Assembly (NCBI GenBank): GCA_021782495.1
Contig: JAJXUV010000010.1
Coordinates: forward strand, 11,601 to 75,600
Source of the DNA: Pseudomonadota bacterium
GTDB taxonomy: Bacteria > Pseudomonadota > Gammaproteobacteria > UBA1113
Direction of reading: 5' to 3'
Length of the DNA stretch: 64,000 nt
A program made the translations under genes and the position numbers. Below the pieces are notes generated by a model that saw nothing but the letters and a program-made list of their open reading frames with translations, was not told the origin of the DNA and searched no databases. Shown piece after piece: positions 2,434-20,357 of this stretch (its first letter is position 1; the number at the start of each line of letters is the position of its first letter).

Positions 2434-2561
2434 GGTATTCTCTTTCCTATAGGACGAAGACCCATTATACCAGGTTAATAAGCGGTGTTCATGGTCAAAT
2501 TCAAGACAAATTAGGGACTTGTTTTTTTCCAAAAATAATGTAAAATGATGCCTTCTTCCAC

Positions 2562-2634: not shown

Positions 2635-2689
2635 CATCCCTCATCCATATAATATTATTTTAATAGACATTTGTATTTTAGGAGAAAAT

Positions 2690-3265
2690 ATGAAAAGTGT
2701 GGCTGTATTTTGTGGTGCTGCGATGGGATCGGAGCCAGAGTTGTCAAAAGAAGTGGTGAAGCTGGTTTATTTGCTGGCAAAACACAATATCGAATTAATT
2801 TATGGCGGTGGAAAAGTAGGTATTATGGGTTTGGTTGCCGACACTGCGCTCCGATGTCACTGCAAAATTGTGGGCGTGATCCCCGATTTTCTCATAGATA
2901 GAGAGTTAGCTCACCCGGCTTTGTCAGAATTGATTGTCGTAAAATCCTTTAACGAAAGAAAAGAAGCCATCTACAAAAGAGCAGATGCTTTTATTTTATT
3001 GCCCGGCGGCATTGGTTCTTTGGATGAATTTTTTGATGCTTTAAATCAAATGCACGTCGGACTACTCAGTAAGCAATTTGGGATTTTAAATTCGATGAAT
3101 TACTACAGTCCCATCTTAATGCAACTTCACAAGGCTACAGAATTGGCATTCATGAAGCCCCAAATGTACGATATGATTAAAGTGGGTTCTACCGCGGAAT
3201 CCTTGATAGAAGAAATATTGAATAGCGAACCCTCTAAAATCAATCGGTGGATGGAGGTGGATTAG
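2690..3265 (+). CDS. LOG family (TIGR00730-type) nucleotide phosphoribohydrolase
   Basis: 191 aa with GGGxxGxMG (YGGGKVGIMG) and the PGGxGTxxE-type motif (LLPGGIGSLDEFFDAL). Confidence 0.85.
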   Translation: MKSVAVFCGAAMGSEPELSKEVVKLVYLLAKHNIELIYGGGKVGIMGLVADTALRCHCKIVGVIPDFLIDRELAHPALSELIVVKSFNERKEAIYKRADAFILLPGGIGSLDEFFDALNQMHVGLLSKQFGILNSMNYYSPILMQLHKATELAFMKPQMYDMIKVGSTAESLIEEILNSEPSKINRWMEVD

Positions 3266-3434
3266 ACATCCTTACGGAAACATTAAGATGCCAATATTCC
3301 CCCTCTAAATTGTGTTTTTTTCATTTCTTTTTTATTCGAAAAATGAGAAAATGTTTTTATCTCGAATCGATTATATGAATCCATTTGAGATGGGTTTTTA
3401 AGTTAGTTTAATTAATATTATTTGGAGCGAAAAA

Positions 3435-3677
3435 ATGAATAACACAGTCAAAAAAATGTTAGCAGTCACTGCTTTAAGTGCTTTAACGGTCGTTGGTTTT
3501 GCTGCGCGTCCCACAGTGGTAACAGCCACTCCGGCAGCGCCCGCAGCAGTGCCTACAGTTGTAACAGTAGCTCCGGCGGCAGCTCCTGCAGCGCCAGCAG
3601 CTGTTGCTAGACCAGCACTAATTCCAACTGCAGTTGTGACGGCAGCCCCAGCAGCCCCAGCAGTGGTAGCAGCTTAG
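3435..3677 (+). CDS. small secreted Ala/Pro/Val/Thr-rich repeat protein (hypothetical)
   Basis: GGAG about 8 nt upstream of ATG. N-terminal signal-like MNNTVKKMLAVTALSALTVVGFA, followed by low-complexity PAAPAAV repeats. No recognisable family. Confidence 0.45.
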   Translation: MNNTVKKMLAVTALSALTVVGFAARPTVVTATPAAPAAVPTVVTVAPAAAPAAPAAVARPALIPTAVVTAAPAAPAVVAA

Positions 3678-3702
3678 TTCTATCACTAAAGTGTGAAAAG
3701 CA

Positions 3703-3727
3703 TGACACTGGTTTACCACCAGTGTCA
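3703..3727. terminator. hairpin between convergent genes (3435..3677 and trhO)
   Basis: 10-bp stem tgacactggt / accagtgtca with a 5-nt loop. On the minus strand it is followed by tgcttttc, consistent with a trhO terminator. Confidence 0.5.
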
Positions 3728-3737
3728 GCTTGTCTCG

Positions 3738-4586
3738 CTAGGGCTTGTTTACACAATAAGGACAAGACACTTCAATCACATAGTCAGGACTTTGTTGTTC
3801 TGCGGGTAATAAAGGGTTTTGACAGTTGTAACACAAAATGGCCGCGGTTTCTTCTAAATGGGGATCGAGCGCAACGCGTTTGTCAAAGACAAAACAATCC
3901 CCTCGATAATGCGCGCCGCCGCATTGTTCGAAATAATTGAGAATACCGCCTTCCAATTGATACACTTCTTGATAGCCTTGTTGTTCCAAAGCCACCGAAG
4001 CTTTTTCGCAACGAATGCCTCCGGTGCAAAACATGACGAGCGGTTTTTGTTTGACTTCTTCGGGCAATTGATGGATGCAAGCCATCGGAAAATCTCTGAA
4101 ATGTTCTAAGCCATCGAGTGTAGTGGCTTTTTCAAAAGTGCCTAGACGCACTTCATAATCGTTGCGCGTGTCTAATAAAATAAAATCGCGCTGATTGTCC
4201 AGCCATTCTTTTAAAGTGTGTGGTGAAAGAGTAGGGGCTGTGTGCAAAGCGGGTTGGATCTCGGGCATTCCCAGCGGGATAATTTCTTGCTTTAATTTCA
4301 CCAACATTCGGTTAAAAGGCTGGCTTTCAGACCAGCTTTGTTTGTATTGTGTGGAAGCCATGTCCAATTCTGCGAATAAAGGGTCTTGATGGAGATAATC
4401 CATGAAGGCCGTGATAGCCGATTTGCTGCCCGCCAAAAATAAGTTAATGCCTTCACTACTCAATAATATTGAGCCTTTTAAAGCTAAATTGTGGCACAGG
4501 ACTTGGAGCGCTTCTCGACGTTCAGGTAGCCTATCGACGCTGACAAAGCGATAAGCCGCAATGTTTAAAACCGGTTTAGTTTCCAT
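3738..4586 (-). CDS. trhO: rhodanese-domain tRNA uridine(34) hydroxylase TrhO (YceA/UPF0176)
   Basis: 282 aa. Rhodanese active-site loop FCTGGIRCEKAS and a C-terminal Cys cluster CYNC...CPYC, typical of the YceA family. Confidence 0.85.
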   Translation of the reverse strand: METKPVLNIAAYRFVSVDRLPERREALQVLCHNLALKGSILLSSEGINLFLAGSKSAITAFMDYLHQDPLFAELDMASTQYKQSWSESQPFNRMLVKLKQEIIPLGMPEIQPALHTAPTLSPHTLKEWLDNQRDFILLDTRNDYEVRLGTFEKATTLDGLEHFRDFPMACIHQLPEEVKQKPLVMFCTGGIRCEKASVALEQQGYQEVYQLEGGILNYFEQCGGAHYRGDCFVFDKRVALDPHLEETAAILCYNCQNPLLPAEQQSPDYVIEVSCPYCVNKP

Positions 4587-4726
4587 AACATACTCTAAAA
4601 TTGAACAAAATTTGGCGCTATTATAACAAAGGGATGTTATTTAGGCTAGGCTGCATTTTGATCAAAAAAAGACCATACTTAAGGTGCTTTAATTGGTTGT
4701 ATCAGCGGCTCAAAAAGGAGCGGATC

Positions 4727-4984
4727 ATGTACAAGAATATTAAAAAGAGTTTGGTGGTGTTGACTTTCAGTTTCTTGTGTTTGTTACAAATTGGTTGTGG
4801 GCCCAGTATCGGAGTAGAAGGTTATTATCCCTTGGGTAGCCCCTATTATTACAGAGACAGCAGTGGTTACTATTGGGGAATGCCTGAATATTACCCTTAT
4901 AACAATAATGGCTATCATGATGGTTATTTTTTTGGAACGCCAGAGCATTCCTACCACAATGAAGATTACAGGCGCGGTTACTAA
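4727..4984 (+). CDS. Tyr/Gly-rich putative lipoprotein (hypothetical)
   Basis: ATG at 4727 is preceded by aaaaggagcggatc. Signal plus lipobox LLQIGC, then a Y/G-rich tail. The 4601 start on the ORF track lacks an SD. Confidence 0.45.
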   Translation: MYKNIKKSLVVLTFSFLCLLQIGCGPSIGVEGYYPLGSPYYYRDSSGYYWGMPEYYPYNNNGYHDGYFFGTPEHSYHNEDYRRGY

Positions 4985-5016
4985 GGTGGTTTCCACGATA
5001 GGCGATAATGTTCAGG

Positions 5017-5910
5017 TCAATTTTTAGCATACAAGAGATAATATAGTCTTATTAATAAGATAGACAGAATGATAATGAAAATAAATTCGAAAATAGAGTT
5101 AATGCCTACATAAACACCTTGCATAAAGTAAACGCACAAGGGTATGAGTGCCATTAAGAGTGATGTCTTTACTGCACCCAAATTAGAAATGGCTTTTTGT
5201 ACACTATATACCGGAAAAATAGTGCTCAAGAGAGATATGAATAAAAAATCATACCATTTATCTATTGTAATGTGATACAAGTCAATCTGAGTAGGTAAAA
5301 AATAACAAATTACTAATGAGAAAATCGTTATAAAATAAAATCTGGTACATACCACATCAATCCATGGTACTTGATTTTGTCGCTGTAACTTATCAGTGTA
5401 GCAAATGTATAGAGAGGAAACAAAGGCGGATAAAACAGTGCAAAATAATCCCATAAAAACTTCTAAATACGGAGGGTGTTTTACAGCATAGTACCCGGAA
5501 AGAACAAAAAGAATTAGAGTTATAGAGGCTAGAGTATAAACGGAATTTTTTTTGACAGCTTGTTTCTTAATGAAAATCGAAAACAACGGCAGAGAACCCA
5601 TAAATACAGATATAAATATGGAGGGTTGAATTAGTTTTAAGCCATAAAAGGTTCCGAGCCAGATAATCAGTGTGAGTGTATTTGTTGTAAAAAATGCTTT
5701 TTTATTATTATAAAAAAAAGCATAAGCCGAGACAATTCTCTTTATATTGATTAGATTAAACAAAAAAATGCATAGAGAAAATGCAATAAAAGTAAGTAAA
5801 AAAGTAGGTATGTTTTTCTCAGCATCATGAATTAAAACCATAGAGGCTGCTGTAGATAAAATGTAAATAGTCACTGGGCTATAATCTGATAAACGAATCT
5901 TATTAAACAT
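5017..5910 (-). CDS. polytopic membrane protein, DMT/EamA-like transporter by size and topology
   Basis: 297 aa with about 10 hydrophobic segments in two halves and a GGAGG SD. Very AT-rich. Lies 30 nt downstream of the ATP-grasp gene on the same strand. Confidence 0.55.
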   Translation of the reverse strand: MFNKIRLSDYSPVTIYILSTAASMVLIHDAEKNIPTFLLTFIAFSLCIFLFNLINIKRIVSAYAFFYNNKKAFFTTNTLTLIIWLGTFYGLKLIQPSIFISVFMGSLPLFSIFIKKQAVKKNSVYTLASITLILFVLSGYYAVKHPPYLEVFMGLFCTVLSAFVSSLYICYTDKLQRQNQVPWIDVVCTRFYFITIFSLVICYFLPTQIDLYHITIDKWYDFLFISLLSTIFPVYSVQKAISNLGAVKTSLLMALIPLCVYFMQGVYVGINSIFEFIFIIILSILLIRLYYLLYAKN

Positions 5911-5940
5911 AAGGCCTCCTAAAATAGGGAAATGGTTGTT

Positions 5941-7167
5941 CTATAGCAGGGAATGAAAGTCAAAATTTATATCCGCATACTGATCGCTGCTTAATAAGAA
6001 TTTTGCAGCAATGTCAACTATAGAGCTACTTTTTTGGTCACTTTTAATCGGGTTGCTTATCCATAATCTAGAAATCTTAGATTTAAAACTTTGTTTATTT
6101 ATTTTTTCTAGGAAAGGGTGCTGATAAGGAACAGAGGCTTGCAGACAATACAGATTAGGAATTCGATGAAAACTTATGTCCCTACCTAATTTTGAAGCAA
6201 GGTCTAAAGTAAATAAATTTATGCCATACATTTCTTCGTACATATAAGCTATCGAGATTCCTGCTGGTCGTACTGCTGCTTCAAGGAAAAAAATATTCCC
6301 ATTTGCGTTAACGAATTGCTCAACATGGTATGTTCCATTCACTTTTCCCAGAGTTTCAACAGCCAAAATAGCATGCGCATCTAGTTTTTTCTTCAGATCT
6401 TCATTCTCCTGAAGTACTAAACTGGCAATAATTTTTCCTTTGGCAAACAGGTGGTTTGGGTATGTGTATTGACATGTCTCAATAAAAATCACTTTGCCAT
6501 CTTTTAAAACAATATCTGTATGATAAAGATTTCCATCTATGAATTCTTCAACTTCATACTCAAGAGTGCAGTAAATTTGTTTAGATAAAAAACCCATAAA
6601 ATCATCTACATTATTTACGATAAAAACACCAAAACTCCCGGCATATGCACGTGGTTTAAGGACAAAAGGGAGTCCAAATACATTGGTTAAATAGCAGTAA
6701 TAATCAAGGGCGGCATTTTCAATTTTTTCTTTTGAGAAATTTTCATACTTTGGAATGCGAACACCGGTGTTTTCAAGGGCCTTTTTCATGATTAGTTTGT
6801 CTTGAAATTTAGAAGTGAGGGATTCACTGGGTCCAGGAATACCTAATTCATCTCGTAGTCTCCCGATTAAACTTATATTGATTTCATCGATGCAGATTAA
6901 AGAAAAGGGTTCTTCTTTGAAATTTAATGTCATTTCCTTCGTAACTATTCTTTTTATTTCTTCATACCCGAATTTAACCAGTGGGCCATCGCTGCAAAGT
7001 TTATCAGATATAGCGTATATCTTTGAAAAAAACTTTTTTTTATCTTTTGGGAAAAAATCGAGGCATGATTCTAAAATGATTGCAAAATATCTATCGCCAT
7101 TTTCAAAGATTTTTTCAAAGTCATAATTATCCATATACTTGTGAGAAATAAATCCAACGACAGTCAT
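5941..7167 (-). CDS. ATP-grasp domain protein (carboxylate-amine/L-amino-acid-ligase-like)
   Basis: 408 aa. Central ATP-grasp-like block (FVLKPRAYAGSFGVFIV ... EEFIDG ... FLEAAVRPAG). AT-rich. Confidence 0.7.
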   Translation of the reverse strand: MTVVGFISHKYMDNYDFEKIFENGDRYFAIILESCLDFFPKDKKKFFSKIYAISDKLCSDGPLVKFGYEEIKRIVTKEMTLNFKEEPFSLICIDEINISLIGRLRDELGIPGPSESLTSKFQDKLIMKKALENTGVRIPKYENFSKEKIENAALDYYCYLTNVFGLPFVLKPRAYAGSFGVFIVNNVDDFMGFLSKQIYCTLEYEVEEFIDGNLYHTDIVLKDGKVIFIETCQYTYPNHLFAKGKIIASLVLQENEDLKKKLDAHAILAVETLGKVNGTYHVEQFVNANGNIFFLEAAVRPAGISIAYMYEEMYGINLFTLDLASKLGRDISFHRIPNLYCLQASVPYQHPFLEKINKQSFKSKISRLWISNPIKSDQKSSSIVDIAAKFLLSSDQYADINFDFHSLL

Positions 7168-8638: not shown

Positions 8639-8884
8639 ATGATGTCATCTTTGATTTCGGTACGTTTAAATGATGAAGTGCTTGCAGATATGCGCCATAA
8701 AGCACAACGCTTGCATTTGTCTCAAGCAGAATATATTCGTGAAGCCATTCTTCGTTTTAATGTGGTATTGGAGCAAAAAGAAAGAGCAGAGCGTTTAAAA
8801 AAAGCGAGCTTGAAAGTGCGTGCTAATAGTATGGAAGTAAATAAAGAATTTAGTGAGATAGAGCATGACCCTGATGTTGAATAA
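8639..8884 (+). CDS. ribbon-helix-helix (CopG-like) antitoxin
   Basis: 81 aa. N-terminal RHH pattern ISVRLNDEVLADMRHKAQRLHLSQAEYIREAI. Overlaps the toxin gene by 20 nt. Confidence 0.7.
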   Translation: MMSSLISVRLNDEVLADMRHKAQRLHLSQAEYIREAILRFNVVLEQKERAERLKKASLKVRANSMEVNKEFSEIEHDPDVE

Positions 8885-9218
8885 GGGTGAAATTTGGCTT
8901 GCCAATTTAAATCCAAGTAGAGGTACCGCACCTGGAAAAATGCGGCCTGTTTTGATAGTACAAGATCAAGCTCTTTTAGAGACTAAACATCCGTCTACAC
9001 TCATCATTCCTTTAACAACGGCCTTAATTGAGGGGGCGGCACCTTTAAGGCTTAGAATTACTGCAAGAGATCGCTTAAAACAAGATTCTGATTTACTCAT
9101 CGATCAAATTCGCGCTGTTGACAATAAGCGTTTATTAGAAGGTCCGTTGACTCTGTTAAACGAGGATATTCTCAAAATAGTTTATAAAGCGGTTTCTGAA
9201 GTAATGGGGATGGTGTGA
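8865..9218 (+). CDS. MazF/PemK family mRNA interferase toxin
   Basis: 117 aa. GEIWLANLNPSRGTAPGKMRPVLIVQ is the characteristic PemK/MazF N-terminal block. Confidence 0.8.
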   Translation: MTLMLNKGEIWLANLNPSRGTAPGKMRPVLIVQDQALLETKHPSTLIIPLTTALIEGAAPLRLRITARDRLKQDSDLLIDQIRAVDNKRLLEGPLTLLNEDILKIVYKAVSEVMGMV

Positions 9219-9240
9219 AAAATTTCAACAAAATACTATT

Positions 9241-9262
9241 ATGAAACGATCATTGCAATTAA
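9241..9262 (+). repeat. left copy of the 22-nt direct repeat duplicating the uvrB start (attL-like)
   Basis: atgaaacgatcattgcaattaa is identical to 20336-20357. Here it opens only a 10-codon dead-end ORF (MKRSLQLTEQ*). Confidence 0.9.
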
Positions 9263-9380
9263 CTGAGCAATAAAAACAGGTAAGTGTTGCTAGCTCGTTT
9301 AAATAGAAATTCACATTACTTTAAATAGTGAATACTGATTTCCTAAATGATACTGTTGTACAAACAAATTCTACATTTTA

Positions 9381-9389
9381 TGTTATAAT
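9381..9389 (+). promoter_or_regulatory. extended -10 element (TGtTATAAT) upstream of the NRPS
   Basis: tgttataat lies about 105-150 nt upstream of the NRPS start candidates. No clear -35. Confidence 0.3.
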
Positions 9390-9531
9390 TCTCCGGATAA
9401 GTTAATTTATTTTATACCGATCGGACACTTTTAATATAAATATAACGACAAACAGTGGATTTTTATTATTATAATATTGGGCGGTTAAGCAATATGAATA
9501 CTTCAGGAAAACTATTATTAAAAAAAAAGCT

Positions 9532-12500
9532 TTGATATTAGGCGAAAGCAAATTATGCATCCAATGCATTGAATATTTATTGAATGATGATCATTGGGAG
9601 CTAATTGCTATTGTATCACAGGATCCCATTGTTATTCAATGGTGTAATCAACATTCAGTTTTGGTTTTACCTTTTGCTAGATTGGATGAAATTCATGATA
9701 CGGAATTTTATCTTTTTAGCGTTGTGAATTTCAATATCATTCCAGAATCATTTTTTAAACAGAATAAAATTATTCTGGCTTTAAATTATCATGATAGTTT
9801 ACTGCCTAGATACGCGGGTCTGAATAGTACCACGTGGGCTATTGTTGAGAATGAAAAAATACACGGGGTTAGTTTACATTGTATCAGCTCTGAAATTGAT
9901 GCAGGAGATATTATTTTACAAGCTGAAATTCCCATTGAGAAGAATGAAACTGCAATATCTCTCAATCTAAAATGTAGTGAGAAGTTACTTCTTTTATTTC
10001 AAGAAGCTATTCATCAAATCAATGCTGGGACAATCGCTACCTTCAAACAAGACCGTGTACACAGAACTTACTATGGTCTTGAATATATCCCTGAAAATTA
10101 TGCCTTGATGAATGGGATTAAAGATTTTTCTTTTTTAGATAGATTGCGCCGAGGATTGACCTTTGGTGAGGGCTATAGCAATAGCGTTGCCAGCCTTAAA
10201 ATTTTTTTGCATGATAGATTTTATATATTAAGTGATCCGAAGCCAAGCGTATGGACTGCAGAGAAATTTGAAAAAAATGCAAAAGAATCTCTTTTTAACA
10301 CCATCTTAGACATTTATGGCCATAAAACCAATGTTCATATTACTTTTAAAGAGCTATTGCCAGCTTATAACCTGAGTCAAGAAGATTTATTGTATCTTTC
10401 TCAGCTAAAGGCACTTGAACCCAAACAAAAACAATCTATTTCAGACTATCTAAATGAAGAGGCATCGCTTTCTATTTTAGATCCTGTGATGAACCGTGAT
10501 GCTTTAGAGATCTATACCAAAGAAATAATGCTTCCTGATGCGATGGAACCTGAGACCGCTTTAGCGATAGTTTATGTCGTTTTGACCCGGTTTTTTGAAG
10601 AAGATTTCATTTTTTCTGTGTATAATTTTGATGGAACAATCCCAGACTCTCTCAAAAACCTCATTGAAAAGCGGTGTTTTATCAAAGCGAGTCGAGAAAA
10701 GCTAACAGAAACTTTTGCAGAACTCAAAGAGTCTGTAAAAAAAATGAAAGACGATGCTTATCTTTTAGTGAAGGATTTTGGGTATCGCTATCATCTGTCT
10801 TTGTTAACGGACATTGCGGTGACTTTGAATAGGAAAGATGAATACATTGATAAACACAAGATCAAAATCAATGTGGAAAGTCATTCACTTACTATTGAAG
10901 GCCGGAATGAATATGCATTGCAGATGAGTAGTATTGGCAATTGTTTAGAAGTGCTTTTTTGTAAATACCTTAAAAATAATTTTCTAGGTGAAAATTTAAG
11001 AACCATTCAATTATTAAGCGATGCAGAGTACCAGAAAATAGTGTATGAGTGGAACAAAACAGAGGTGGATTGCCCAGATAATAAAACCCTTCACCAATTG
11101 TTTGAAGAGCAAGTTAAAAGAACGCCTAATAATATTGCCGTAGTTTATCAAGATAGGCAATTGAGTTATAGTGAATTGAATGCGAAAGCAAATCAGTTGG
11201 CGCGTTATATTTCCAGGATACATCCGATTAGCCCAGATAATTTCATCGCACTGTGCTTGGATAGAAGTGAATATCTGATAATCAGTATTCTTGCGGTATT
11301 AAAGTGTGGAGCCGCGTATGTTCCCATTGATCCAAATTATCCTGTTAATAGAATACGCTATATTTTAGAAGATGCGAAACCAGCGCTTGTGCTAACGAAT
11401 GAACGGCACAATGCATCTTTAAAAAATATTAAATCGGGTTTATTGTTAGTCAATGTGGACAGTCCGGAAAATTCAAATAGAATACCCAAAGAAAAAACAG
11501 ATAACCTAAACACACAGGTTACGAGTACTCATTTAGCTTATGTTATCTATACGAGTGGCACAACGGGCCAACCAAAAGGAGTCTTACAGAACCATGGAAA
11601 TGTGGTCAGTTTATTTCATGCAACAGAGAATCTATATCAATTTGATACACAAGACGTATGGACATTATTTCATTCATACGTATTTGATGTCAGCATATGG
11701 GAAATATGGGGCGCATTCATTTATGGGGGAAAATTAATCGTACCAAGTTATGAACAAATTAAAGATTTGGAAGATTTTTATGAATTGTGTTGTCGCTTTA
11801 ATATTACTGTTTTAAATCAAACGCCCTCTGTATTTTATCAATTCAGCGAAATTATCTTTAAAAGACAGGGTGCATCATTAAAAAAATTGCGGTATATAAT
11901 ATTTGCAGGTGAGAAACTAGATTTGATGCAATTAAAATCGTGGTTTCATCATTTTCCCTCAAATAATCCAAAACTGGTCAATATGTACGGTATCACTGAA
12001 ACAACCATACATACGACGTATAAAATTATCAAGAAAGAGGAGTTAAGCAATAAATCTCTTATTGGAAGATGTCTACCTGATAAAAAGGGATATGTGTTAG
12101 ACGCGGATTTAAATATATTACCGACGGGGGCAATTGGTATTTTATATGTCGGTGGTTCAGGCATTACCCGAGGGTACCTCAATCAACTTGATTTAACCCA
12201 CAGAAAAATTATTCCTAATTTATTTCAAACCTTGGATGAAAAGCATCACCATAAAAATGCTTTCTTATACGACAGTGGGGATAAAGTATGTTATTTACCC
12301 AATGGCGAATTAGAATATATTGGTAGAAATGATACCCAAGTTAAGATCCGTGGGTTTAGAATTGAATTAGCTGAAATTGAAGCAATTATCAACAGTTGTT
12401 CTGGTATTCAGCAAAGTATTGTATTGATGAAAGAGCTTCAAGCCGGGTTAGGCGGTCAAGCTTCCAAAAAATATTTAATAAGTTATTATACCGCAGAATT

Positions 12501-15500
12501 TGAATTGGAAAAAAAAGCCATATTAGAGCATATCGCCCAATATTTACCTGATTATATGATTCCAACGGCGCTTATGTATCTTAAAAAATTTCCTTTAACC
12601 ATTAATGGAAAATTAGACTACAGAGCGCTTCCGGACATATTTTTAACCAATAGCGCCACCTATGTCGCACCCCGTAATGAATTAGAATTGAATTTATGCG
12701 CCGTTTTTGCCAATGTGCTCGGGTTGGATAAAAATAAAATTGGCATTAAAGATAACTTTTTTAACTTGGGGGGTGACAGTATTTTTGCCATTAAAGTTGT
12801 CACGCAACTAAACAGTCTCTATCAGCTTAAATTACAAGTCAATGATATTTTTACCTACAAAACAGTGGAACTGCTAGCTGCTGTATTAGAAACAGATAAT
12901 TCTTTTCAAAATGAGTCAATTCAAAATTCAAATTATCAGAAATTTTCCCTTATTTCTGATGCATTTAATCTTATCGATGACGCAGTAGAAGATGTTTATC
13001 CAGCGAGTTATTTGCAAATGGGGATGATTTTTGAATCCACACGCGATAACCATCAAGGAACTTATCATGATGTATTTTGTTACACCATAGAGAGTATTTT
13101 TAATCATGAAAAATTTATTTCTATTTGGAATAAGCTGGTTGCCAAACACGAACTGCTCAGAGCGAAATTTGTCCCGTCCAGTTATGGGTATAATGTCGTC
13201 ATTGCGAAAAAAAATCTTGTACAAGTTCAAGCGTTTGAGGAACGAAATTCCTTAGACATTTTGGCTGAAGAAAAATTACGTGACATTAATCAAAATGAAA
13301 CGGGTCTCTATAGATTGATCGTGAATAAAAAAAAACAGCGATTTGATTTTATTTTTTCCTTTCATCACGCGATAGTGGATGGGTGGAGTGTTGCTTCTCT
13401 AGTTAATGAATTTATTCAAGCCTATGTTTTTGACAAAGATGTTATCCATGATTTGTCTAATATCAGTTATGGGGAATTCATACAAAATGAAAGAAAAGCC
13501 ATTCAGGATCAAACTAAATTTCAGTTTTGGAAAGATTATTTGGCTGATTTTCAAGTGCCAAGATTTGGTTGGAAAGTTGAAAATGAAAGTTCAGGCAGAG
13601 GTACTTTCAATGTGCGTCGTGAGTTGAGTCAAAAAGAAGTCAATAAACTCTATTCTTTAGCCAATGAGTATGCCGTTAGTGTAGACACGATATTTTTAGA
13701 AGCCTACTTTAGAACGTTGGCACAATTTTCTGATCAAGAAGATATTATCGTGGGGTTGGTAGTCAATAATCGTTTGGAAAGAGAAGGAGGGGATAGATTA
13801 ATCGGATTATTTTTAAATACAATACCATTTCGGGTTAAAGTAAACAGTGCATTGAGTGCAAAAGTTATTTTTAATGAAAAAATAAACCTTTATAAGTATA
13901 AAGATTTACCCTATGGCTGTATAAAGTCAATTTTTAAGGATAAAATTTATGACTTTGCATTTAACTTTACACATTTTCATTCCTTGACAGATAGTTATCC
14001 GTACATTTCAAATTTTGTTGCATTTGAACGAACCAGTATATCTGCATTATTGAATGTTTATCAAAAAGAAAATGCCTTCACCTTGTTGTTGGCTGCCCAT
14101 AGTGATTATATAAATCAAACTTATCTAGATTATTTTATGAGCTATTATCAATTTAATTTAAATTTGATTCTTGATGGCAGTCCAGATAAAACCATTTTGA
14201 CCCAAGAAGATTATATAAAATTAACTCGAACTTGGAATGCAACGACAGCGCCGTATTCTGAAAATAAAACGATACAGCAACTTTTTGAAGAGCAAGCGCT
14301 AAAAACACCGAATAAGACAGCGGTTGTTTATGAGAACAGAGCCTTCACTTATCAAGAATTAAATGAGCTTTCTAATCAGTTAGCACATTTTATAAAAACA
14401 CAATACAAACTTTGTCTAGAGGATTTGGTGATCTTATTTTTAGAGAGAAGCGAAGCTATTCTCCTAGCCATATTAGCTGTTTTTAAAGCAGGTGCTGCTT
14501 ATGTTCCTATAGGTACTGATTATCCTAAGGATAGGATCCAATATATTCTCGAGGATACTAAAGCAAGACTTATATTGTCCGATGATAGGAATATAAGCAA
14601 GTTAGAGCATATTAAACCAAGCACTCAGAATATCTCCTCAGTATTATCTTTGGATAATTTTTATAAAAATTTGAAACACACAGATTTTTCGAGAGCAAAT
14701 CTTCAAACAGAACTCACAAGCAAGCATCTTGCTTATGTTATGTATACCAGTGGAACCACAGGGTATCCTAAGGGGGTTATGGTTGAGCATAAAAGTATTG
14801 TTAATATAATACAACAGTTGGCTAGTCTATACGATGTGAACCTCGGAGATAGAATATCTGCATTCTGTGCCTATACTTTTGATGTGTCGGTTTCAGAATT
14901 TTTTGCGCCTTTAATCATAGGGGCTACTGTTTATATTCTGCCTGAATTTTTAAGAAGAGAGGTAGAAGAGTTAAGCTTATATATTCGAACACACAAAATT
15001 AATCATTTGTATTTGCCACCGGTCTTATTGGCGCTGTTGCCCAGAGTAAATTACCCCGATTTACGCCGAATAATTTATGCTGGAGAAGCCTGTGATCAAA
15101 AAACAGGTGCATATTGGTCCAGACATTTTGAGTTGTTTAATTATTATGGTCCCACAGAAACGACGATATATGCAATAGGAAAGCAAGTTATCGAAGGAGA
15201 CGTTCAGTTGATTGGTAAGCCTTTGAATAATTATAAAGTATATGTTCTGGGTAAAAATTTAAATTTATTACCTTGTGGTGCAATAGGGGAATTGTATATC
15301 AGTGGTGTAGGCCTTGCTAGAGGTTATTTAAATCAACCAGCATTAACACAAGAAACATTCATTGCTAATCCCTTTGCATCTGCAGAAAATAATGCGCATG
15401 ATGATCGATTGTATAAAACGGGAGATTTAGTCAGATTTACACTAAATGGGGATATTCATTATCTTGGACGAGTGGACAAGCAAGTTAAGATAAGGGGCTA

Positions 15501-18003
15501 TAGAATTGAGCTTAGTGAAATAGAAAGTGTGATAAATCGTCACGCTAATATTAAACAAAGTTTGGTTATTTTAGAAGAAGATCATCGTTCTGATATAGAA
15601 AATACCGACAAATATTTAATAGCCTATTATGTAAAAGAAATAAAGGGGACCGGAAGTGATCCCACAGATTTTGTTAAAAATTGGCAAGAAATCTATGATT
15701 TAACTTACAGAGGATTAGATAGGGAAGATTTGAAAAATAATTTTGTTGGATGGAATAGTTCTTATACTGGAACACCTATTTCGAAGGCGCAAATGTGTGA
15801 ATGGCGAGATGAAATCGTCACTAAACTGCGACAATTAGTTCTGAAACGGGTGCTCGAAATCGGTTGTGGAAATGGATTGATACTTTTTAACTTAATAGAT
15901 GAATGTAAGTATTATCGTGCCTTCGATTTTTCCGCATCCGCTGTGCAGCATATTCAAAAATGGGTTAGACATTTTTGTTTTGCTGATAAATGTGAAGTGT
16001 CTCTATCTGAAGCAAGCGATATTGTATTTGAAAGCTTGCCAAAAGACTACGATACAGTCATTCTGAATTCAGTGGCCCAATATTTTCCCACTTTAGATTA
16101 TTTGGAAAATATTTTAATTAAAATCATAGAGAATATGAAAGTTTCAGGACAGATTTTCATAGGCGATGTTCGGGATTTTAGGTTGTTAGAGTGCTTTTCT
16201 TATTCAGTATTACGCTTTAAGCAAAAAACTGTTGGCATTTCGGATATTGAGTATTTTAAAATAAAAGAAAAAGAACTATTGATTTCACCAGAGTATTTTC
16301 TGTACCTTAAACATCGCCATAGTAGTATATCTTATATTGAGCTATTACCAAAATTAGCCGATTCAGTCAATGAAATGAATTGTTATAGATATGATGTTGT
16401 TTTACATATCAATAAGCACAACATGAAAAATGTTTTCACTGTCGATGAAAATAATTTTTTAAAAACAACAAATATCCAAGAAACCCTCAATATGAATAAC
16501 GAAGAAATCCTCTATTTAAAATATCCAAATATAAGAATTTACGAAGATTATATAAATTGTCAAAGCTTATATGGCCATGACTCAGGTGAGTTTATTCTGG
16601 AAAAAAATAAGGCTTTATTTAACATTACTCAGTTGACAAAGATTTTCAATGAATTTGGGTATGAGCCAAAATTTTATTTGGGTATCGTTGAGCCGCTTTA
16701 TCTGAATATCATAGCATGTAAAAATAAAAAGTATGCCGCGAAGACTTTTGCTCTTGATTGCCAAGATGTTTTTTTAATAAAAAAACGTTTTTCGAATGAT
16801 CCGTTGAAAAATATGGGATTATTAAACAATAAATACACCGAAAAATTAAAAAACTATTTAGAAAGTCAATTGCCCAATTATATGCTCCCCAGATATTTAA
16901 TTCTGCTTGATCGCATACCCACTAATTCAAACGGAAAAATTGATTACACGAGCTTACCTAAGCCGAAATTTAATTTTAGTAGTCATTATGAAGCACCAAA
17001 AACAGAATTAGAAAAGCAACTTAGTGAAATCTTTTCTAAAGTACTGAATTTGTCTCAGAATAAAATAAGCGTTTGTGATAATTTTTTTGAGATAGGAGGT
17101 AATAGCATTTTAGCAATCCAACTGGTTTCTATGATAAATTCAAAATTAAATTATACACTTAAGGTGGTAGATGTATTTTCTATGCGAACTATTCAAAATC
17201 TTTCCAATCATTTATCTTCTGTAAAAGATAATTCATCTTACATTGCAAATTTAAATCACGTTTATAATAAGTTAAATATGTTTATGATACATCCCGCTTT
17301 TGCTGGCTCTGAAGTTTATATTAAATTATCTGACCAATTGGTGGACAATTATAGTTGTTATGGACTAGATAATTATAATTTGTATCATTCTCAGAAAATA
17401 ACCGATATTCAAGAACTAGCCCATTTTTATTTGAATTTAATAGATAAAGTTAGAACGGAAACGCATCAAGAAAATAAACCTTATCTATTACTAGGTTGGT
17501 CTTTAGGGGGGCAAATTGCATTGAGTATTGCTTCCATTTTGGAGCAATGCGGTTATGAGGATATTTTTGTCATTCTTATTGATACGGTTTATCCTGATAA
17601 AATGCTGATGGACTATTTATCGCGAGTGGGTTTAAATGAATTGCAATTAAATTTTTTTAGGGAACAACTTAGATTTGAACCGAATTATCTAGCTAAAATT
17701 AAAAATAACTTTGATTGTGATCGGTATTTGTCTTCGCAAGCCCTGAATATTCGACTAAAATATACTCAGATTTTATTGTTTAAAGCCATGCAAAAGGAAA
17801 GTGTATTTTTTTCGAAAAATGATAGGTTCCTGAAGGAATATATTAGGGGGTTATCTTACAATAATATAGATAAAATAATTGACATTAATAAGATTGGTTT
17901 AGTAAAATTAGAAAATGCAACCCATTTTAATATTTTGGAGCGAAATGAATTCATAAAGACTCATATTTCAGTCTTTATGAATCAAATGGAAGTTTTTGGA
18001 TAG
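9532..18003 (+). CDS. non-ribosomal peptide synthetase: F-(C-like remnant)-A-T-C-A(MT)-T-TE
   Basis: Domain landmarks by nt:
- Formyltransferase HDSLLPRYAGLN, about 9532-10130.
- A1 core LAYVIYTSGTTGQPKGV at 11533, then NMYGITETT and NGKLDY.
- T1 FFNLGGDS, Ser codon 12778-12780.
- C domain HHAIVDGWS at 13363-13389.
- A2 LAYVMYTSGTTGYPKGV at 14728.
- SAM-MT motif VLEIGCGNGL at 15850-15880, inserted between A8 and A9.
- T2 FFEIGGNS, Ser codon 17104-17106.
- TE GWSLGG at 17494-17511.
The start is TTG at 9532; see the frameshift finding. Confidence 0.93.
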   Translation: MILGESKLCIQCIEYLLNDDHWELIAIVSQDPIVIQWCNQHSVLVLPFARLDEIHDTEFYLFSVVNFNIIPESFFKQNKIILALNYHDSLLPRYAGLNSTTWAIVENEKIHGVSLHCISSEIDAGDIILQAEIPIEKNETAISLNLKCSEKLLLLFQEAIHQINAGTIATFKQDRVHRTYYGLEYIPENYALMNGIKDFSFLDRLRRGLTFGEGYSNSVASLKIFLHDRFYILSDPKPSVWTAEKFEKNAKESLFNTILDIYGHKTNVHITFKELLPAYNLSQEDLLYLSQLKALEPKQKQSISDYLNEEASLSILDPVMNRDALEIYTKEIMLPDAMEPETALAIVYVVLTRFFEEDFIFSVYNFDGTIPDSLKNLIEKRCFIKASREKLTETFAELKESVKKMKDDAYLLVKDFGYRYHLSLLTDIAVTLNRKDEYIDKHKIKINVESHSLTIEGRNEYALQMSSIGNCLEVLFCKYLKNNFLGENLRTIQLLSDAEYQKIVYEWNKTEVDCPDNKTLHQLFEEQVKRTPNNIAVVYQDRQLSYSELNAKANQLARYISRIHPISPDNFIALCLDRSEYLIISILAVLKCGAAYVPIDPNYPVNRIRYILEDAKPALVLTNERHNASLKNIKSGLLLVNVDSPENSNRIPKEKTDNLNTQVTSTHLAYVIYTSGTTGQPKGVLQNHGNVVSLFHATENLYQFDTQDVWTLFHSYVFDVSIWEIWGAFIYGGKLIVPSYEQIKDLEDFYELCCRFNITVLNQTPSVFYQFSEIIFKRQGASLKKLRYIIFAGEKLDLMQLKSWFHHFPSNNPKLVNMYGITETTIHTTYKIIKKEELSNKSLIGRCLPDKKGYVLDADLNILPTGAIGILYVGGSGITRGYLNQLDLTHRKIIPNLFQTLDEKHHHKNAFLYDSGDKVCYLPNGELEYIGRNDTQVKIRGFRIELAEIEAIINSCSGIQQSIVLMKELQAGLGGQASKKYLISYYTAEFELEKKAILEHIAQYLPDYMIPTALMYLKKFPLTINGKLDYRALPDIFLTNSATYVAPRNELELNLCAVFANVLGLDKNKIGIKDNFFNLGGDSIFAIKVVTQLNSLYQLKLQVNDIFTYKTVELLAAVLETDNSFQNESIQNSNYQKFSLISDAFNLIDDAVEDVYPASYLQMGMIFESTRDNHQGTYHDVFCYTIESIFNHEKFISIWNKLVAKHELLRAKFVPSSYGYNVVIAKKNLVQVQAFEERNSLDILAEEKLRDINQNETGLYRLIVNKKKQRFDFIFSFHHAIVDGWSVASLVNEFIQAYVFDKDVIHDLSNISYGEFIQNERKAIQDQTKFQFWKDYLADFQVPRFGWKVENESSGRGTFNVRRELSQKEVNKLYSLANEYAVSVDTIFLEAYFRTLAQFSDQEDIIVGLVVNNRLEREGGDRLIGLFLNTIPFRVKVNSALSAKVIFNEKINLYKYKDLPYGCIKSIFKDKIYDFAFNFTHFHSLTDSYPYISNFVAFERTSISALLNVYQKENAFTLLLAAHSDYINQTYLDYFMSYYQFNLNLILDGSPDKTILTQEDYIKLTRTWNATTAPYSENKTIQQLFEEQALKTPNKTAVVYENRAFTYQELNELSNQLAHFIKTQYKLCLEDLVILFLERSEAILLAILAVFKAGAAYVPIGTDYPKDRIQYILEDTKARLILSDDRNISKLEHIKPSTQNISSVLSLDNFYKNLKHTDFSRANLQTELTSKHLAYVMYTSGTTGYPKGVMVEHKSIVNIIQQLASLYDVNLGDRISAFCAYTFDVSVSEFFAPLIIGATVYILPEFLRREVEELSLYIRTHKINHLYLPPVLLALLPRVNYPDLRRIIYAGEACDQKTGAYWSRHFELFNYYGPTETTIYAIGKQVIEGDVQLIGKPLNNYKVYVLGKNLNLLPCGAIGELYISGVGLARGYLNQPALTQETFIANPFASAENNAHDDRLYKTGDLVRFTLNGDIHYLGRVDKQVKIRGYRIELSEIESVINRHANIKQSLVILEEDHRSDIENTDKYLIAYYVKEIKGTGSDPTDFVKNWQEIYDLTYRGLDREDLKNNFVGWNSSYTGTPISKAQMCEWRDEIVTKLRQLVLKRVLEIGCGNGLILFNLIDECKYYRAFDFSASAVQHIQKWVRHFCFADKCEVSLSEASDIVFESLPKDYDTVILNSVAQYFPTLDYLENILIKIIENMKVSGQIFIGDVRDFRLLECFSYSVLRFKQKTVGISDIEYFKIKEKELLISPEYFLYLKHRHSSISYIELLPKLADSVNEMNCYRYDVVLHINKHNMKNVFTVDENNFLKTTNIQETLNMNNEEILYLKYPNIRIYEDYINCQSLYGHDSGEFILEKNKALFNITQLTKIFNEFGYEPKFYLGIVEPLYLNIIACKNKKYAAKTFALDCQDVFLIKKRFSNDPLKNMGLLNNKYTEKLKNYLESQLPNYMLPRYLILLDRIPTNSNGKIDYTSLPKPKFNFSSHYEAPKTELEKQLSEIFSKVLNLSQNKISVCDNFFEIGGNSILAIQLVSMINSKLNYTLKVVDVFSMRTIQNLSNHLSSVKDNSSYIANLNHVYNKLNMFMIHPAFAGSEVYIKLSDQLVDNYSCYGLDNYNLYHSQKITDIQELAHFYLNLIDKVRTETHQENKPYLLLGWSLGGQIALSIASILEQCGYEDIFVILIDTVYPDKMLMDYLSRVGLNELQLNFFREQLRFEPNYLAKIKNNFDCDRYLSSQALNIRLKYTQILLFKAMQKESVFFSKNDRFLKEYIRGLSYNNIDKIIDINKIGLVKLENATHFNILERNEFIKTHISVFMNQMEVFG

Positions 18004-18014
18004 GAGCCAGAAAA

Positions 18015-20306
18015 ATGTTAAATAGCAGCGATCTATCAAGCAGTTCACAAATGATTAAGCAAATTATTGATCTGGTCGATACGAGTATTTATTGGAAGGA
18101 TAAGGAAGGCCGTTATTTGGGGTGCAATCAATACGTGTTAAAAATTGCAGGCCTTAACAGTCTGGATGAAATCCTCGGAAAAACCGATTTTGAACTCGTG
18201 TGGAAAAGAGAAGCATCTAAAATAAAAGAAATTGATGATTGGGTGATGCGCACGGGAAATTCTTATCGAGGAGAAGAAGCCATATCTACCCATGATGGTA
18301 AGCTTCTACTCGGTTTTTCAATAAAAAATCCACTGCTAGACAAGAATGGTCAGATTATTGGTGTTATAGGTACGTCCGTTGATATTACCGCTAAAAAAGA
18401 AGCTGAGCGCTTAGCATTAGAAAATATAGCTTATAAAACTATTCAGGAGCAAGAACGAAGATTTAGGCAAATTATTAATGTGGTGGATGTTAGTATTTAT
18501 TGGAAGGATAGAGAGGGGCGTTATTTAGGCTGTAATCAGTATGTGTTGAACATTGCGGGTCTTAACAGTCTAAATGAAATCCTCGGAAAAACCGATTTTG
18601 AACTCGTGTGGAAAAAAGAAGCACCTAAAGTAAAAGAAATAGATGACTGGGTGGTCCGCACAGGAAGCCCTTATCGTGGTGAAGAATTTATATCTGTTGA
18701 GCATACTAATCAGGTAGCAGCATTTTTTACAATAAAAAACCCCTTATTTGATGATGATGGTCAAGTGATTGGTATTGTGGGAACTTCAATTGACATTACT
18801 GCTAAAAAAGAAGCCGAAGTGCTAAAACTTGAAGCTGAAAAACACAAAATAATTGAAGAACAACAACGCGAATTTCGAAAGATCGTAGAACAAGTAGCAC
18901 ATGATATTCGATCACCGGTTGGTGCTCAGAGAATGAATTTAAATGAGTGTAAACATTATTTGCCGGAATTATATCGAGTTGCTTTTACCAAATCTCTAAA
19001 CCGAATCGATGATGTCGCTTATCGATTGATGAGCACAGTCAATCCAGGAGAGAAAGCAAGAGCATATCGTGCGAATCCAGTCAAAGAACCCACGCTTATT
19101 TCCAATGAAATCTTCGAAGTGATCGCGGAAAAACGTCATGAATATCGCGAGAAAACGATAGACTTTTGTGCGCATTTCACCGAATCCGCGTATTTTGCTT
19201 TTTTGAATATCAATACTTTGGATTTTAAACGCATGCTGTCGAATCTTATCAATAATGCAGTTGACGCCATTCAAGATAAAATCGGTCGAGTTGATGTTCA
19301 CATGGATGCGAGTGAGCTGCAAGTCCAAATTACGATCCAGGATAATGGCATGGGGATGCCCGATTCAGTTAAAGAAAAAATTTTAAATAACATCGCGGTG
19401 ACTGCTAGTAAAACAGATGGACATGGCATTGGCTTTGGGCAAATTCGAGATACTTTAAAGGAAGCTGAAGGTGAATTGGCGATTGAATCGATTAAAGGAG
19501 TTGGCACTAAAATCATACTCTCTTTTCCTCGAGTGGATAGCCCGAATTGGATTGCCACTCAAATAGAGCTATTTTCAGACGACATGATTGTGGTTTTAGA
19601 CGACGATGATTCTATCCACGATGCTTGGGAGGCGCGATTTCAAAAAGTAGCGCCAAACATTCCACGCCACCATTTTAAAGGGGGGAAAGAAGCTATTCTT
19701 TTTATTAACAATTTTGATGATGCTGCGAAGAAAAAATTATTGTTACTGACCGATTATGAATTGTTAGAACAAGAGTTGCATGGTTTAGAAGTGGTCGAAA
19801 AAACGGGAATAAAGCGTTCTATCTTGGTGACGAGTCACAACGACAATCCCAAGGTAACAACCTTGGCCGAATCCCTTCATACCAAAATACTGCCCAAACC
19901 TTTGGCAGCACATGTACCGATTGAATTCAAAGTAGAATTAGAAACAGAAGCGCTACGTAAAGTCGATGCCGTTTATGTAGATGACGATGAAGATCTTTTG
20001 GCAGCAGTAACCCGCGCCATGCAAACGAGGAATAAAGTGATTGACACTTATTCTTCGGTTTACAAATTTTTAGAAAATAAAGCCGTTTACCCTAAAGACG
20101 TCAAGATTATCCTAGACAACCAATTTCAAAGGGAATACGCTCGAGGCATAGAAATAGCACAAGAATTGCACGAAGCGGGTTATACACGTCTTTATTTGTT
20201 TTCAGGGGAATATTTTGATTCTAGCCAGGATGGGGTTATCCCCCCTTATTTAACGGTTATTTTTAAAACGGATATTGATCGTCTTTTTGAAGTATTGGAT
20301 GAATAA
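18015..20306 (+). CDS. hybrid sensor histidine kinase (PAS-PAS-HisKA-HATPase-REC-REC)
   Basis: Two near-identical PAS-like modules. H-box VAHDIRSP, N-box NLINNAVDA, G-boxes DNGMGMP and GHGIGFG. Two receiver-like regions follow (VVLDDDDS...LLLLTDYEL...KILPKP and VYVDDDED...KIILDNQ). Starts 12 nt after the NRPS stop. Confidence 0.85.
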   Translation: MLNSSDLSSSSQMIKQIIDLVDTSIYWKDKEGRYLGCNQYVLKIAGLNSLDEILGKTDFELVWKREASKIKEIDDWVMRTGNSYRGEEAISTHDGKLLLGFSIKNPLLDKNGQIIGVIGTSVDITAKKEAERLALENIAYKTIQEQERRFRQIINVVDVSIYWKDREGRYLGCNQYVLNIAGLNSLNEILGKTDFELVWKKEAPKVKEIDDWVVRTGSPYRGEEFISVEHTNQVAAFFTIKNPLFDDDGQVIGIVGTSIDITAKKEAEVLKLEAEKHKIIEEQQREFRKIVEQVAHDIRSPVGAQRMNLNECKHYLPELYRVAFTKSLNRIDDVAYRLMSTVNPGEKARAYRANPVKEPTLISNEIFEVIAEKRHEYREKTIDFCAHFTESAYFAFLNINTLDFKRMLSNLINNAVDAIQDKIGRVDVHMDASELQVQITIQDNGMGMPDSVKEKILNNIAVTASKTDGHGIGFGQIRDTLKEAEGELAIESIKGVGTKIILSFPRVDSPNWIATQIELFSDDMIVVLDDDDSIHDAWEARFQKVAPNIPRHHFKGGKEAILFINNFDDAAKKKLLLLTDYELLEQELHGLEVVEKTGIKRSILVTSHNDNPKVTTLAESLHTKILPKPLAAHVPIEFKVELETEALRKVDAVYVDDDEDLLAAVTRAMQTRNKVIDTYSSVYKFLENKAVYPKDVKIILDNQFQREYARGIEIAQELHEAGYTRLYLFSGEYFDSSQDGVIPPYLTVIFKTDIDRLFEVLDE
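18051..18836 (+). repeat. in-frame tandem duplication (period 408 bp) encoding the two PAS modules
   Basis: Anchors 18078/18486 and 18168/18576 are both offset by 408 nt. The alignment includes a perfectly identical stretch of about 40 nt, gaaatcctcggaaaaaccgattttgaactcgtgtggaaaa. Confidence 0.85.
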
Positions 20307-20335
20307 CTGCGCTTATTGTAGTATAATAATCCTCT

Positions 20336-20357
20336 ATGAAACGATCATTGCAATTAA
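20336..20357 (+). repeat. right copy of the 22-nt direct repeat (authentic uvrB start, attR-like)
   Basis: atgaaacgatcattgcaattaa is identical to 9241-9262. Confidence 0.9.

Follow-up and report, generated by a model that had tools for sequence, protein, structure and literature searches.

A formylation-starter bimodular nonribosomal peptide synthetase and a partner hybrid sensor kinase on an island inserted at uvrB in a Legionellales-like gammaproteobacterium

We analysed a stretch of 64,000 nucleotides, hereafter the window, from the Pseudomonadota bacterium contig JAJXUV010000010.1 (assembly GCA_021782495.1, positions 11,601 to 75,600, forward strand; GTDB lineage Gammaproteobacteria, UBA1113), focusing on a nonribosomal peptide synthetase (NRPS) gene and the sensor kinase gene behind it. 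The NRPS gene, at 9532-18003 on the forward strand, is a single uninterrupted open reading frame (ORF) of 2823 codons in DNA of 33% G+C. Since 8.4 kb of open frame in DNA of this composition is not expected by accident, we exclude a chance origin. The 2823-aa protein consists, in this order, of a formyltransferase (F) domain, a spacer resembling the C-terminal lobe of a condensation domain (X), a first adenylation (A1) and carrier (T1) domain, a condensation (C) domain, a second adenylation domain (A2) split by an N-methyltransferase, a second carrier domain (T2) and a thioesterase (TE). The kinase gene starts 11 nt past the NRPS stop codon, with GGAG upstream of its start, and both genes lie between two copies of a direct repeat. 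The features are as follows, with positions in the window.

9240-9262 (+): left copy of a perfect 23-nt direct repeat, TATGAAACGATCATTGCAATTAA; duplicated 5′ end of uvrB and left island border
9494-9535 (+): ancestral ATG followed by a run of nine A (A9 run, 9520-9528); the frame reads MNTSGKLLLKKKL and then a stop codon
9532-10326 (+): F domain, aa 1-265, catalytic and C-terminal subdomains, from Pfam, PDB matches and the predicted structure; motif scan, N85-x-H87 in NYHDSLLPRYAG and D123 in SEIDAGD
10357-11001 (+): X domain, aa 276-490, predicted C-terminal lobe of a condensation domain in degenerate form, lacking a catalytic motif
11002-11091 (+): canonical C-A linker, LLSDAEYQKIVYEWNKT, from hhalign
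11092-12636 (+): A1 adenylation domain, specificity code DVWNIAMIHK, probably Thr-like or beta-hydroxy amino acid type
12694-12897 (+): T1 carrier domain, from Pfam and motif scan; GGDS, Ser1083
12949-14241 (+): C domain, motif scan, HHAIVDG at aa 1278-1284 (H1278, H1279, D1283); putative sister group of the CmodAA clade
14269-15567 (+): A2 part a, motifs A1-A8, specificity code DVSYIAYIYK
15649-16821 (+): N-methyltransferase between A8 and A9; S-adenosylmethionine (SAM) motif VLEIGCGNG from aa 2107, motif scan and TioS match
16822-16971 (+): A2 part b, motifs A9 and A10, from motif scan and TioS match
17014-17217 (+): T2 carrier domain, from Pfam and motif scan; GGNS, Ser2525
17269-18003 (+): type I thioesterase, then the stop codon; motif scan, GWSLGG with Ser2657, Asp2684 and His2798
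18015-20306 (+): cytoplasmic hybrid sensor kinase, 763 aa; two PAS domains, H-box (AHDIRSP), HATPase and two receiver-like domains
20335-20357 (+): right copy of the 23-nt repeat, TATGAAACGATCATTGCAATTAA, overlapping the uvrB start (ATG 20336); right island border

Pfam detected Formyl_trans_N (aa 68-150), Condensation (aa 1152-1442), Thioesterase (aa 2583-2691), two AMP-binding and two PP-binding domains, and several SAM-methyltransferase families (aa 2105-2214), and the motif scan showed that each checked catalytic residue is kept. An initial annotation, made from the sequence by eye, had proposed the same domain order, and both searches bear it out, down to every motif that it quoted. The formyltransferase and the methyltransferase are both recognised by their profiles, and none of the losses that it named as marks of a decayed gene (carrier Ser, HHxxxDG of the C domain, TE Ser) has occurred. 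Its hand-derived A1 and A2 codes were reproduced exactly by a scripted alignment, and the domain order supports its prediction of a formyl-capped, N-methylated dipeptide. It overlooked three features described below, namely the CmodAA-like character of the C domain, the coupling to a sensor kinase and a frameshift at the 5′ end.

To place the gene among its relatives, we compared the NRPS with 5.8 billion clustered sequences, in which the next match after itself was 36% identical. L001, a gammaproteobacterial metagenome-assembled genome (MAG) and species representative, encodes a 2438-aa ortholog organised as F-X-A-T-C-A-T-TE. This ortholog is 46% identical to the window protein overall, 67% in F and 53% in X, and the 383-aa methyltransferase is missing from it. 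In A1, the specificity core is 34% identical and the flanks are 55–57% identical, which suggests that the core is a swapped subdomain. A scan with one genome per species returned 178 stretches related to NRPSs with an F starter, including some in Legionella, Tatlockia, Xenorhabdus, Photorhabdus and, among cyanobacteria, Microcoleus. The rarity that the initial annotation had ascribed to such starters thus holds among characterised systems but not in genomes, where they are common. The Legionella genes of the type F-A-T-Red/TE (Red, reductase) have already been predicted to give N-formyl amino-acid derivatives (Tobias et al. 2016, PMC5126622).

The F domain was most similar to sugar N-formyltransferases in a sequence search of the PDB (7n7a, E-value 1.8e-15; FdtF, 3.2e-15; spans aa 2-219 and 37-289), with a weaker match to the F domain of LgrA (6e-7). 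A predicted structure of aa 1-519 (pLDDT 81) matched ArnA, Fmt and sugar formyltransferases in Foldseek. From the sequence and structure matches together, we therefore delimit the F unit as a catalytic plus a C-terminal subdomain, reaching to about aa 265. N85, H87 and D123 align with the catalytic residues of solved formyltransferases and are invariant in 12 homologs. The N-terminus of the NRPS thus combines a formyltransferase fold with the Asn-His-Asp triad and the SLLP folate motif, as in starters of the LgrA type. It departs from that type in that F is not fused directly to A1, which starts near aa 515 behind the 215-aa X. Elsewhere in the window, the backbone carries a 5-formyltetrahydrofolate cyclo-ligase gene (33009-33578, minus strand) of housekeeping folate metabolism; the island has no dedicated gene for a formyl donor.

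X was identified from its fold. An AF2 model of X alone (aa 276-519) had a pLDDT of 86 and a pTM of 0.86, and in Foldseek its top 35 matches all belonged to the condensation family, as did nearly all of the 50 listed, among them EntF, Txo1, LgrA, SrfA-C, EpoB-Cy, RzmA-Cs and CDA-C1. With the query as reference, TM-scores were 0.5–0.66, and with full C domains as reference they were about 0.33, as half a C domain should give. When F and X were modelled together, F dominated and Foldseek returned formyltransferases only. In a global profile alignment (hhalign), X covered C-domain positions 165-441 of 451, from just past HHxxxDG to the C-A linker. The signal was gone (E 0.2) once the linker was left out, which makes the linker the sole part of the spacer with a C-domain-like sequence. 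Neither Pfam (E up to 10) nor the PDB sequence search gave a match for aa 265-520. The earlier proposal that the spacer is the C-terminal lobe of a C domain is therefore carried by the fold in Foldseek, and not by Pfam, PDB or hhalign comparisons of sequence. Searched against 1.84 billion representative proteins, a profile of the X core matched 35, and the window protein belongs to this family; every match lay after an F domain, 265–510 residues from the N-terminus, and none on a canonical C domain. Judged from its model, X is a highly diverged, family-specific and non-catalytic relic of the C-terminal lobe of a C domain. The most likely role of such a catalytically dead half domain would be structural, as a platform on which the native C-A interface is preserved. 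It could have arisen when an F domain became fused to a C domain at a point midway along it.

For the specificity codes we used a scripted alignment to GrsA, in which GrsA itself, as a control, returned DAWTIAAICK. The A1 code is identical to the Thr code at 7 of 10 positions, and in the relative P0048 the code at this position is exactly that for Thr. Among the best single-domain matches of A1 in the PDB is ObiF1 (E 3e-105), which activates a beta-hydroxy amino acid. A1 is probably of the Thr-like or beta-hydroxy amino acid type. The starters of L001, P0002 and P0034 share the A2 code in the form DVSY[IV]AYIYK, which is also found together with DVWNIAMVHK in P0032 and P0046; elsewhere in the family, starters have codes for Val, Gly or exactly Thr, or Ile-like and Asn-like ones. 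In A2, motifs A3 and A10 are 729 aa apart, compared with about 335 aa in uninterrupted A domains, and the methyltransferase sits in the stretch from A8 (aa 1979) to A9 (aa 2447). With its intact SAM motif at this place, it corresponds to the backbone N-methylating interrupted A domain TioS(A4aM4A4b) (5wmm, E 4.9e-49). It also carries NEMNCYRY, similar to NELSxYRY. This motif and the nearest solved relative, an N-methyltransferase, suggest methylation on the alpha-nitrogen.

The top PDB matches of the C domain were McyA (E 4.2e-51) and AmbE C* (E 2e-31), well ahead of ordinary LCL and DCL domains. McyA is a founding member and AmbE C* the structurally characterised member of the dehydrating CmodAA clade (PMC10880069, PMC11342130). 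The C domain thus has CmodAA domains as its nearest relatives, and it contains HHxxxDG. In 50 reference CmodAA domains, the motif [K/R]SVLLAAH precedes C5, with K/R in 50/50 and His in 48/50 (PMC11342130). In CmodAA domains, a pair of Arg residues (96 and 78%) opens motif C6. The window C domain, however, reads VDTIFLEAY in place of [K/R]SVLLAAH, with Asp for K/R and Tyr for His, and has K-D (YKDLPYG) in C6 where McyA has RRYP. The same substitutions are found in the C domains of L001, P0048 and P0017, whereas McyA, P0036 and P0004 keep K...H and RR. These diagnostic residues rule out full membership in the clade. Because K/R, His and RR are replaced, and likewise so in the three relatives, the C domain is best placed as a sister group of CmodAA, and dehydration is not predicted. 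The TE is an alpha/beta-hydrolase with GxSxG and a Ser-Asp-His triad, as in type I enzymes, Asp2684 lying 27 residues past Ser2657. It matches type I TEs of polyketide synthases (PKS) and NRPSs, the best matches being PKS and Pks13-type and modest in score.

The kinase begins at once with a PAS domain; we noted no membrane segment, no transmembrane prediction having been run. It is 37–47% identical to the kinases of L001, P0010 and P0021. A homolog lies downstream of the NRPS in L001 (2-nt gap), in L083 from Coxiellaceae (1-nt gap), in L084 (11-nt gap) and in L085 (overlap), and follows it in L086 after a small intervening gene. The kinase also comes after the NRPS in 7/7 close genome loci in which the end of the NRPS lay within the DNA retrieved. 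Moreover, the kinase module is fused to the NRPS C-terminus in P0010 and P0021, where it is 37–42% identical to the window kinase over the full length, and in P0265, with about 35% over the kinase core. P0048 is the exception to this linkage within the X family. Beside NRPSs with F but without X, we found no such kinase. Both marks of the cassette are present in the window: X between F and A1, and a homologous PAS-HK-REC gene directly downstream or fused. A literature search for NRPS and sensor kinase coupling (Legionellales, N-formyl) found no description; a 'transcriptional regulator' beside some Legionella NRPSs is all that Tobias et al. mention (PMC5126622).

The two PAS modules of the window kinase are a tandem duplication, with 84% DNA identity between 18055-18287 and 18463-18695 (233 nt) and 74% between 18314-18406 and 18725-18817 (93 nt). 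This suggests a recent, internal duplication, and kinase relatives of about 900 aa may carry a third PAS copy. The small gene between NRPS and kinase in L086 (10732-11046) encodes a PQ-loop membrane protein, and a PQ-loop domain is fused to the PAS kinase in P0217 and P0231. These PQ-loop proteins may provide a transport link for the metabolite.

Next, we examined the borders of the region. The 23-nt repeat has two exact copies in the 64 kb, where chance would give 0.01; a truncated remnant of 10 codons starts with the left copy. Together the two copies bound a cassette of 11.07 kb (9263-20334). In more than 20 other gammaproteobacterial loci, an aspartate-aminotransferase gene (aspC) abuts uvrB divergently, mostly ending within about 60–400 nt of it, whereas 11.8 kb separate the two in the window. 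The NRPS and kinase genes have 33 and 39% G+C, compared with 46 and 44% in the flanking genes. The repeat, the separation of aspC and uvrB and the low G+C content therefore identify the NRPS-kinase pair as an insertion in the 5′ end of uvrB with target-site duplication. The gene had been called unexpected in a reduced, host-associated backbone; it sits instead on this inserted island. The region would be a horizontally acquired cassette, inserted in the first 23 nt of uvrB, with two co-oriented and probably co-translated genes. Flanking direct repeats of at least 17 nt were not found in L001, L083, L084 or L085, and the target duplication is documented in the window alone. The window cassette contains no integrase; integrases flank the related cassette in L084-L087.

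We did not count the upstream aminotransferase as a member of the cluster, as it is a conserved uvrB neighbour with backbone G+C content. An ATP-grasp ligase and an EamA gene further upstream were also dismissed, as they lie outside the repeat-bounded island and are missing from related NRPS loci. These two genes (5017-7167, minus strand) form a second low-G+C insert between a rhodanese-like gene and the aminotransferase, the EamA-type transporter having 30% and the ligase 33.5% G+C; the ligase is weakly similar to dipeptide ligases such as DdaF. Between the aminotransferase and the left border, and thus also outside the island, lies a pair of genes for a ribbon-helix-helix antitoxin and a PemK/MazF toxin (8639-9218, plus strand).

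UvrB itself is too conserved to place the host, with matches at 66–72% identity across many orders. The NAD-GDH of the window is 49–54% identical to those of Legionellales MAGs, Aquicella and Legionella. By this similarity, the host is classed as an uncultured Legionellales-like gammaproteobacterium. Other parts of the window and of related loci carry further accessory genes. A largely low-G+C block of about 5.3 kb (37295-42609) is set between ftsI and murE in the cell-division cluster; it encodes an ankyrin-repeat protein of 701 aa, a SAM methyltransferase and two further ORFs, one of 120 aa and one of 566 aa, the latter without a Pfam match, and it has the look of effector cargo carried by an intracellular bacterium. 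Adjacent genes for a nucleotidyltransferase and an NTase-substrate-binding protein (49597-50342, minus strand) resemble a toxin-antitoxin pair of the MNT/HEPN type, and a YhgA-like (Transposase_31) gene lies near the window end (61994-63037, plus strand). In L084 (GCA_021782595.1), two ankyrin-repeat proteins of 966 and 1083 aa (347-6652) are encoded directly upstream of the NRPS-kinase pair, and a phage-type integrase directly downstream.

The 5′ end of the NRPS gene required a closer look. The initial annotation had started the gene at 9532; the ORF stands, but the TTG at this position is just the first start codon after a stop, and the equivalent of the ortholog's start is the ATG at 9494. 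The L001 ortholog begins MNTSRELLFKKKVLIIGETKLC in frame. In the window, the corresponding ATG is out of the NRPS frame, which is shifted by one base after the A9 run relative to it. An independent contig record also contains the A9 run. As the sequence stands, expression of the NRPS would require a start at TTG 9532, a -1 slip or a change in run length. Translation may restart at TTG 9532, with the loss of 13 non-conserved residues. A slip is also possible: the slippery heptamer A_AAA_AAG at 9523-9529, inside the frame of ATG 9494, may restore ...KKKALILGES. Downstream of the heptamer we found no stimulatory RNA fold, a fold of 71 nt being no better than shuffled sequence (z 0.35). With the heptamer present but no downstream fold, a programmed -1 frameshift was not adopted as the explanation and is kept as a possibility.

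Taken together, we favour, with a probability of roughly 0.6, the reading that this is an acquired cassette in which a complete bimodular NRPS makes an N-formyl-(Thr-like)-(N-methyl-X) dipeptide (X here being the second amino acid) and the kinase senses or gates. Following the chemistry of the domains, A1 would load a Thr-like (beta-hydroxy) amino acid on T1, and F would formylate its amino group with N10-formyl-tetrahydrofolate as donor. A2 would load the second amino acid, which is probably small because the pocket is crowded with Tyr residues, and the embedded methyltransferase would N-methylate it on T2. The C domain would then couple both residues, and the Ser-Asp-His TE would release N-formyl-aa1-(N-Me)-aa2, most simply by hydrolysis since the N-terminus is blocked. 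The kinase might sense the peptide or a precursor in the cytoplasm, or gate its synthesis. On this reading, the cassette would be a portable small-molecule signalling or effector unit.

Several observations weigh against this reading. The ancestral ATG is out of frame and TTG 9532 has no obvious ribosome-binding site, so that the protein may begin at TTG or may not be made. Neither A-domain code equals a characterised code, and a literature search for six specificity codes found no paper with them. Motif A6 of A1 (aa 878-890, about 12150-12190) reads GILYVGGSG, with GIL for the usual GEL; nearly all A domains, including those of the L001 ortholog and P0048, have GELY(I/V)GG. The affinity of the C domain to dehydrating domains may leave the oxidation state of residue 1 ambiguous. 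A phosphopantetheinyl transferase, an MbtH-like protein and an exporter are absent from the island and were not found in the window. The second receiver domain of the kinase was weakly detected. Finally, the kinase family is large (667 matches) and mostly stand-alone; the linkage is therefore strong only when viewed from the NRPS and is no proof of ligand sensing.

The first of these points could also mean that the NRPS gene is switched off or decaying after the loss of one nucleotide in the A9 run, as a fresh pseudogene or as a phase-variable gene in its OFF state. Homopolymer runs are classic slipped-strand switches, the second contig record carries the identical run, and ATG 9494 leads to MNTSGKLLLKKKL and a stop, whereas the ortholog runs on in frame. 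However, the 8.4 kb downstream are still open at 33% G+C with every catalytic residue intact, and any inactivation must therefore be very recent. Furthermore, TTG 9532 coincides exactly with the first beta-strand of the F fold, so that a start there would remove only the 13 non-conserved residues, and A_AAA_AAG is a dnaX-type -1 slippery site at which a slip gives the consensus KKKA-LILGES. The shift may also be a homopolymer assembly error. On balance, we regard an inactive gene as unlikely.

Two other alternatives concern the product of an active enzyme. The C domain might dehydrate as well as condense, giving an electrophilic dipeptide of N-formyl-dehydrobutyrine (or dehydroalanine) and N-methyl-X, a formyl-capped counterpart of the acyl-dehydroalanine (Dha)-N-Me-Gly core of corallorazine or of the N-methyldehydroalanine (Mdha) chemistry of McyA. 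The nearest solved relatives, McyA and the dehydrating AmbE C*, the Thr-like code of the upstream module and the logic of cap, Ser/Thr, CmodAA and A-nMT (nMT, N-methyltransferase), which is exactly that of Crz1 (PMC11342130), speak for it. In contrast, the two most diagnostic CmodAA residues are replaced by Asp and Tyr and the RR of C6 by KD, in common with L001, P0048 and P0017, as expected of a distinct sister group, and the identity to McyA is just 28%; dehydration is thus improbable here. Still less probable, in our estimate, is that the TE cyclises or oligomerises dipeptidyl units through the hydroxyl of residue 1 to a cyclic depsipeptide, like the iterative TEs of the enterobactin and thiocoraline/triostin type. 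The N-terminus is blocked and residue 1 probably has a hydroxyl, the triad is complete, EntF is among the PDB matches, and iterative use has been raised as a possibility for small Legionella NRPSs (PMC5126622). Against this, no specific sequence signature marks iterative TEs, the best TE matches are those to PKS and Pks13-type enzymes with modest scores, and many family members end in a reductase instead, which argues for simple chain release.

Returning to the N-formyl dipeptide and its kinase, we tentatively consider a wider possibility, which is doubtful as yet. The F-X NRPS and the PAS hybrid kinase could form a self-contained mobile module of synthase plus cytoplasmic receptor. Such a module, spread by site-specific insertion, would be a new system through which intracellular Legionellales-like bacteria signal or interact with their hosts. 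If so, the same cassette would make and sense a formyl-capped peptide (an acid here; aldehydes or alcohols in relatives that end in a reductase), and some lineages would carry both functions on one polypeptide of 3000–4500 aa. N-formyl caps are rare among characterised nonribosomal peptides, and the F-NRPSs of Legionellales are without any known product. With two genes, 11 kb and clear borders, the locus is a compact target suited to heterologous expression, and it shows a natural fusion junction midway along a condensation domain, of the kind that NRPS engineers make use of artificially. Given the strict coupling of the NRPS to a soluble PAS kinase, three fusions included, a kinase that senses or controls the peptide would represent a new wiring of secondary metabolism to signalling in bacteria inside eukaryotic cells.

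Finally, we compared the locus with known systems. LgrA (F-A-T; 5es5, 6mfz) and the window NRPS both have an N-terminal transferase of the formyl-tetrahydrofolate type with Asn-His-Asp before the first A-T, followed by a C-A-T module, and LgrA is the highest-scoring PDB match for both window A domains. In LgrA, however, F abuts A, which begins at about residue 200, whereas the window protein has about 320 extra residues, formed by the Fmt-like C-terminal subdomain and X. In addition, the window F is closer to sugar N-formyltransferases than to the F of LgrA, and LgrA is without the methyltransferase, TE and partner kinase that the window locus has. TioS(A4aM4A4b) and the window A2 share the methyltransferase between A8 and A9 with its SAM-binding motifs. 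They differ in the host assembly line and in the substrate, and the regiochemistry of the window enzyme is a prediction from this likeness. The N-terminal domain of ACV synthetase (ACVS) reportedly resembles part of a condensation domain. It is, like X, a conserved extra domain before the first A domain (PMC7884236), but stands alone at the N-terminus of fungal or bacterial enzymes, there with no F in front.

The Legionella NRPSs of the types F-A-T-Red and F-A-T-TE (clusters C, G and I; PMC5126622) come from the same broad lineage, Legionellales, and share the F starter and the prediction of small N-formyl derivatives. These NRPSs are uncharacterised, and Tobias et al. suggested a signalling role for them (PMC5126622). 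In our genome scan, the Legionella loci matched the F domain only (aa 1-235), without X and with no kinase within 10 kb; unlike these monomodular enzymes, the window NRPS is bimodular and contains an N-methyltransferase. The closest characterised logic is that of Crz1/Crz2 in corallorazine biosynthesis (Cstarter-A(Ser)-T-CmodAA-A(Gly)-nMT, T-TD; PMC11342130), which shares an N-capped residue of the Ser/Thr type, a CmodAA-type C domain, an nMT-interrupted A2 and a capped dipeptide with an N-methyl residue. There, a starter C domain supplies a fatty acyl cap, whereas in the window F would add an LgrA-like formyl cap; the window C domain is without the K/R and His of CmodAA, release is by a TE instead of a terminal reductase, and the A2 code is not that for Gly. 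The locus is thus not a plain LgrA-type module, since X intervenes, nor a verified CmodAA system, since key residues are missing. The enzyme class is known; what sets this locus apart is the X domain, the coupling to a kinase, the clean insertion and the frameshifted start.

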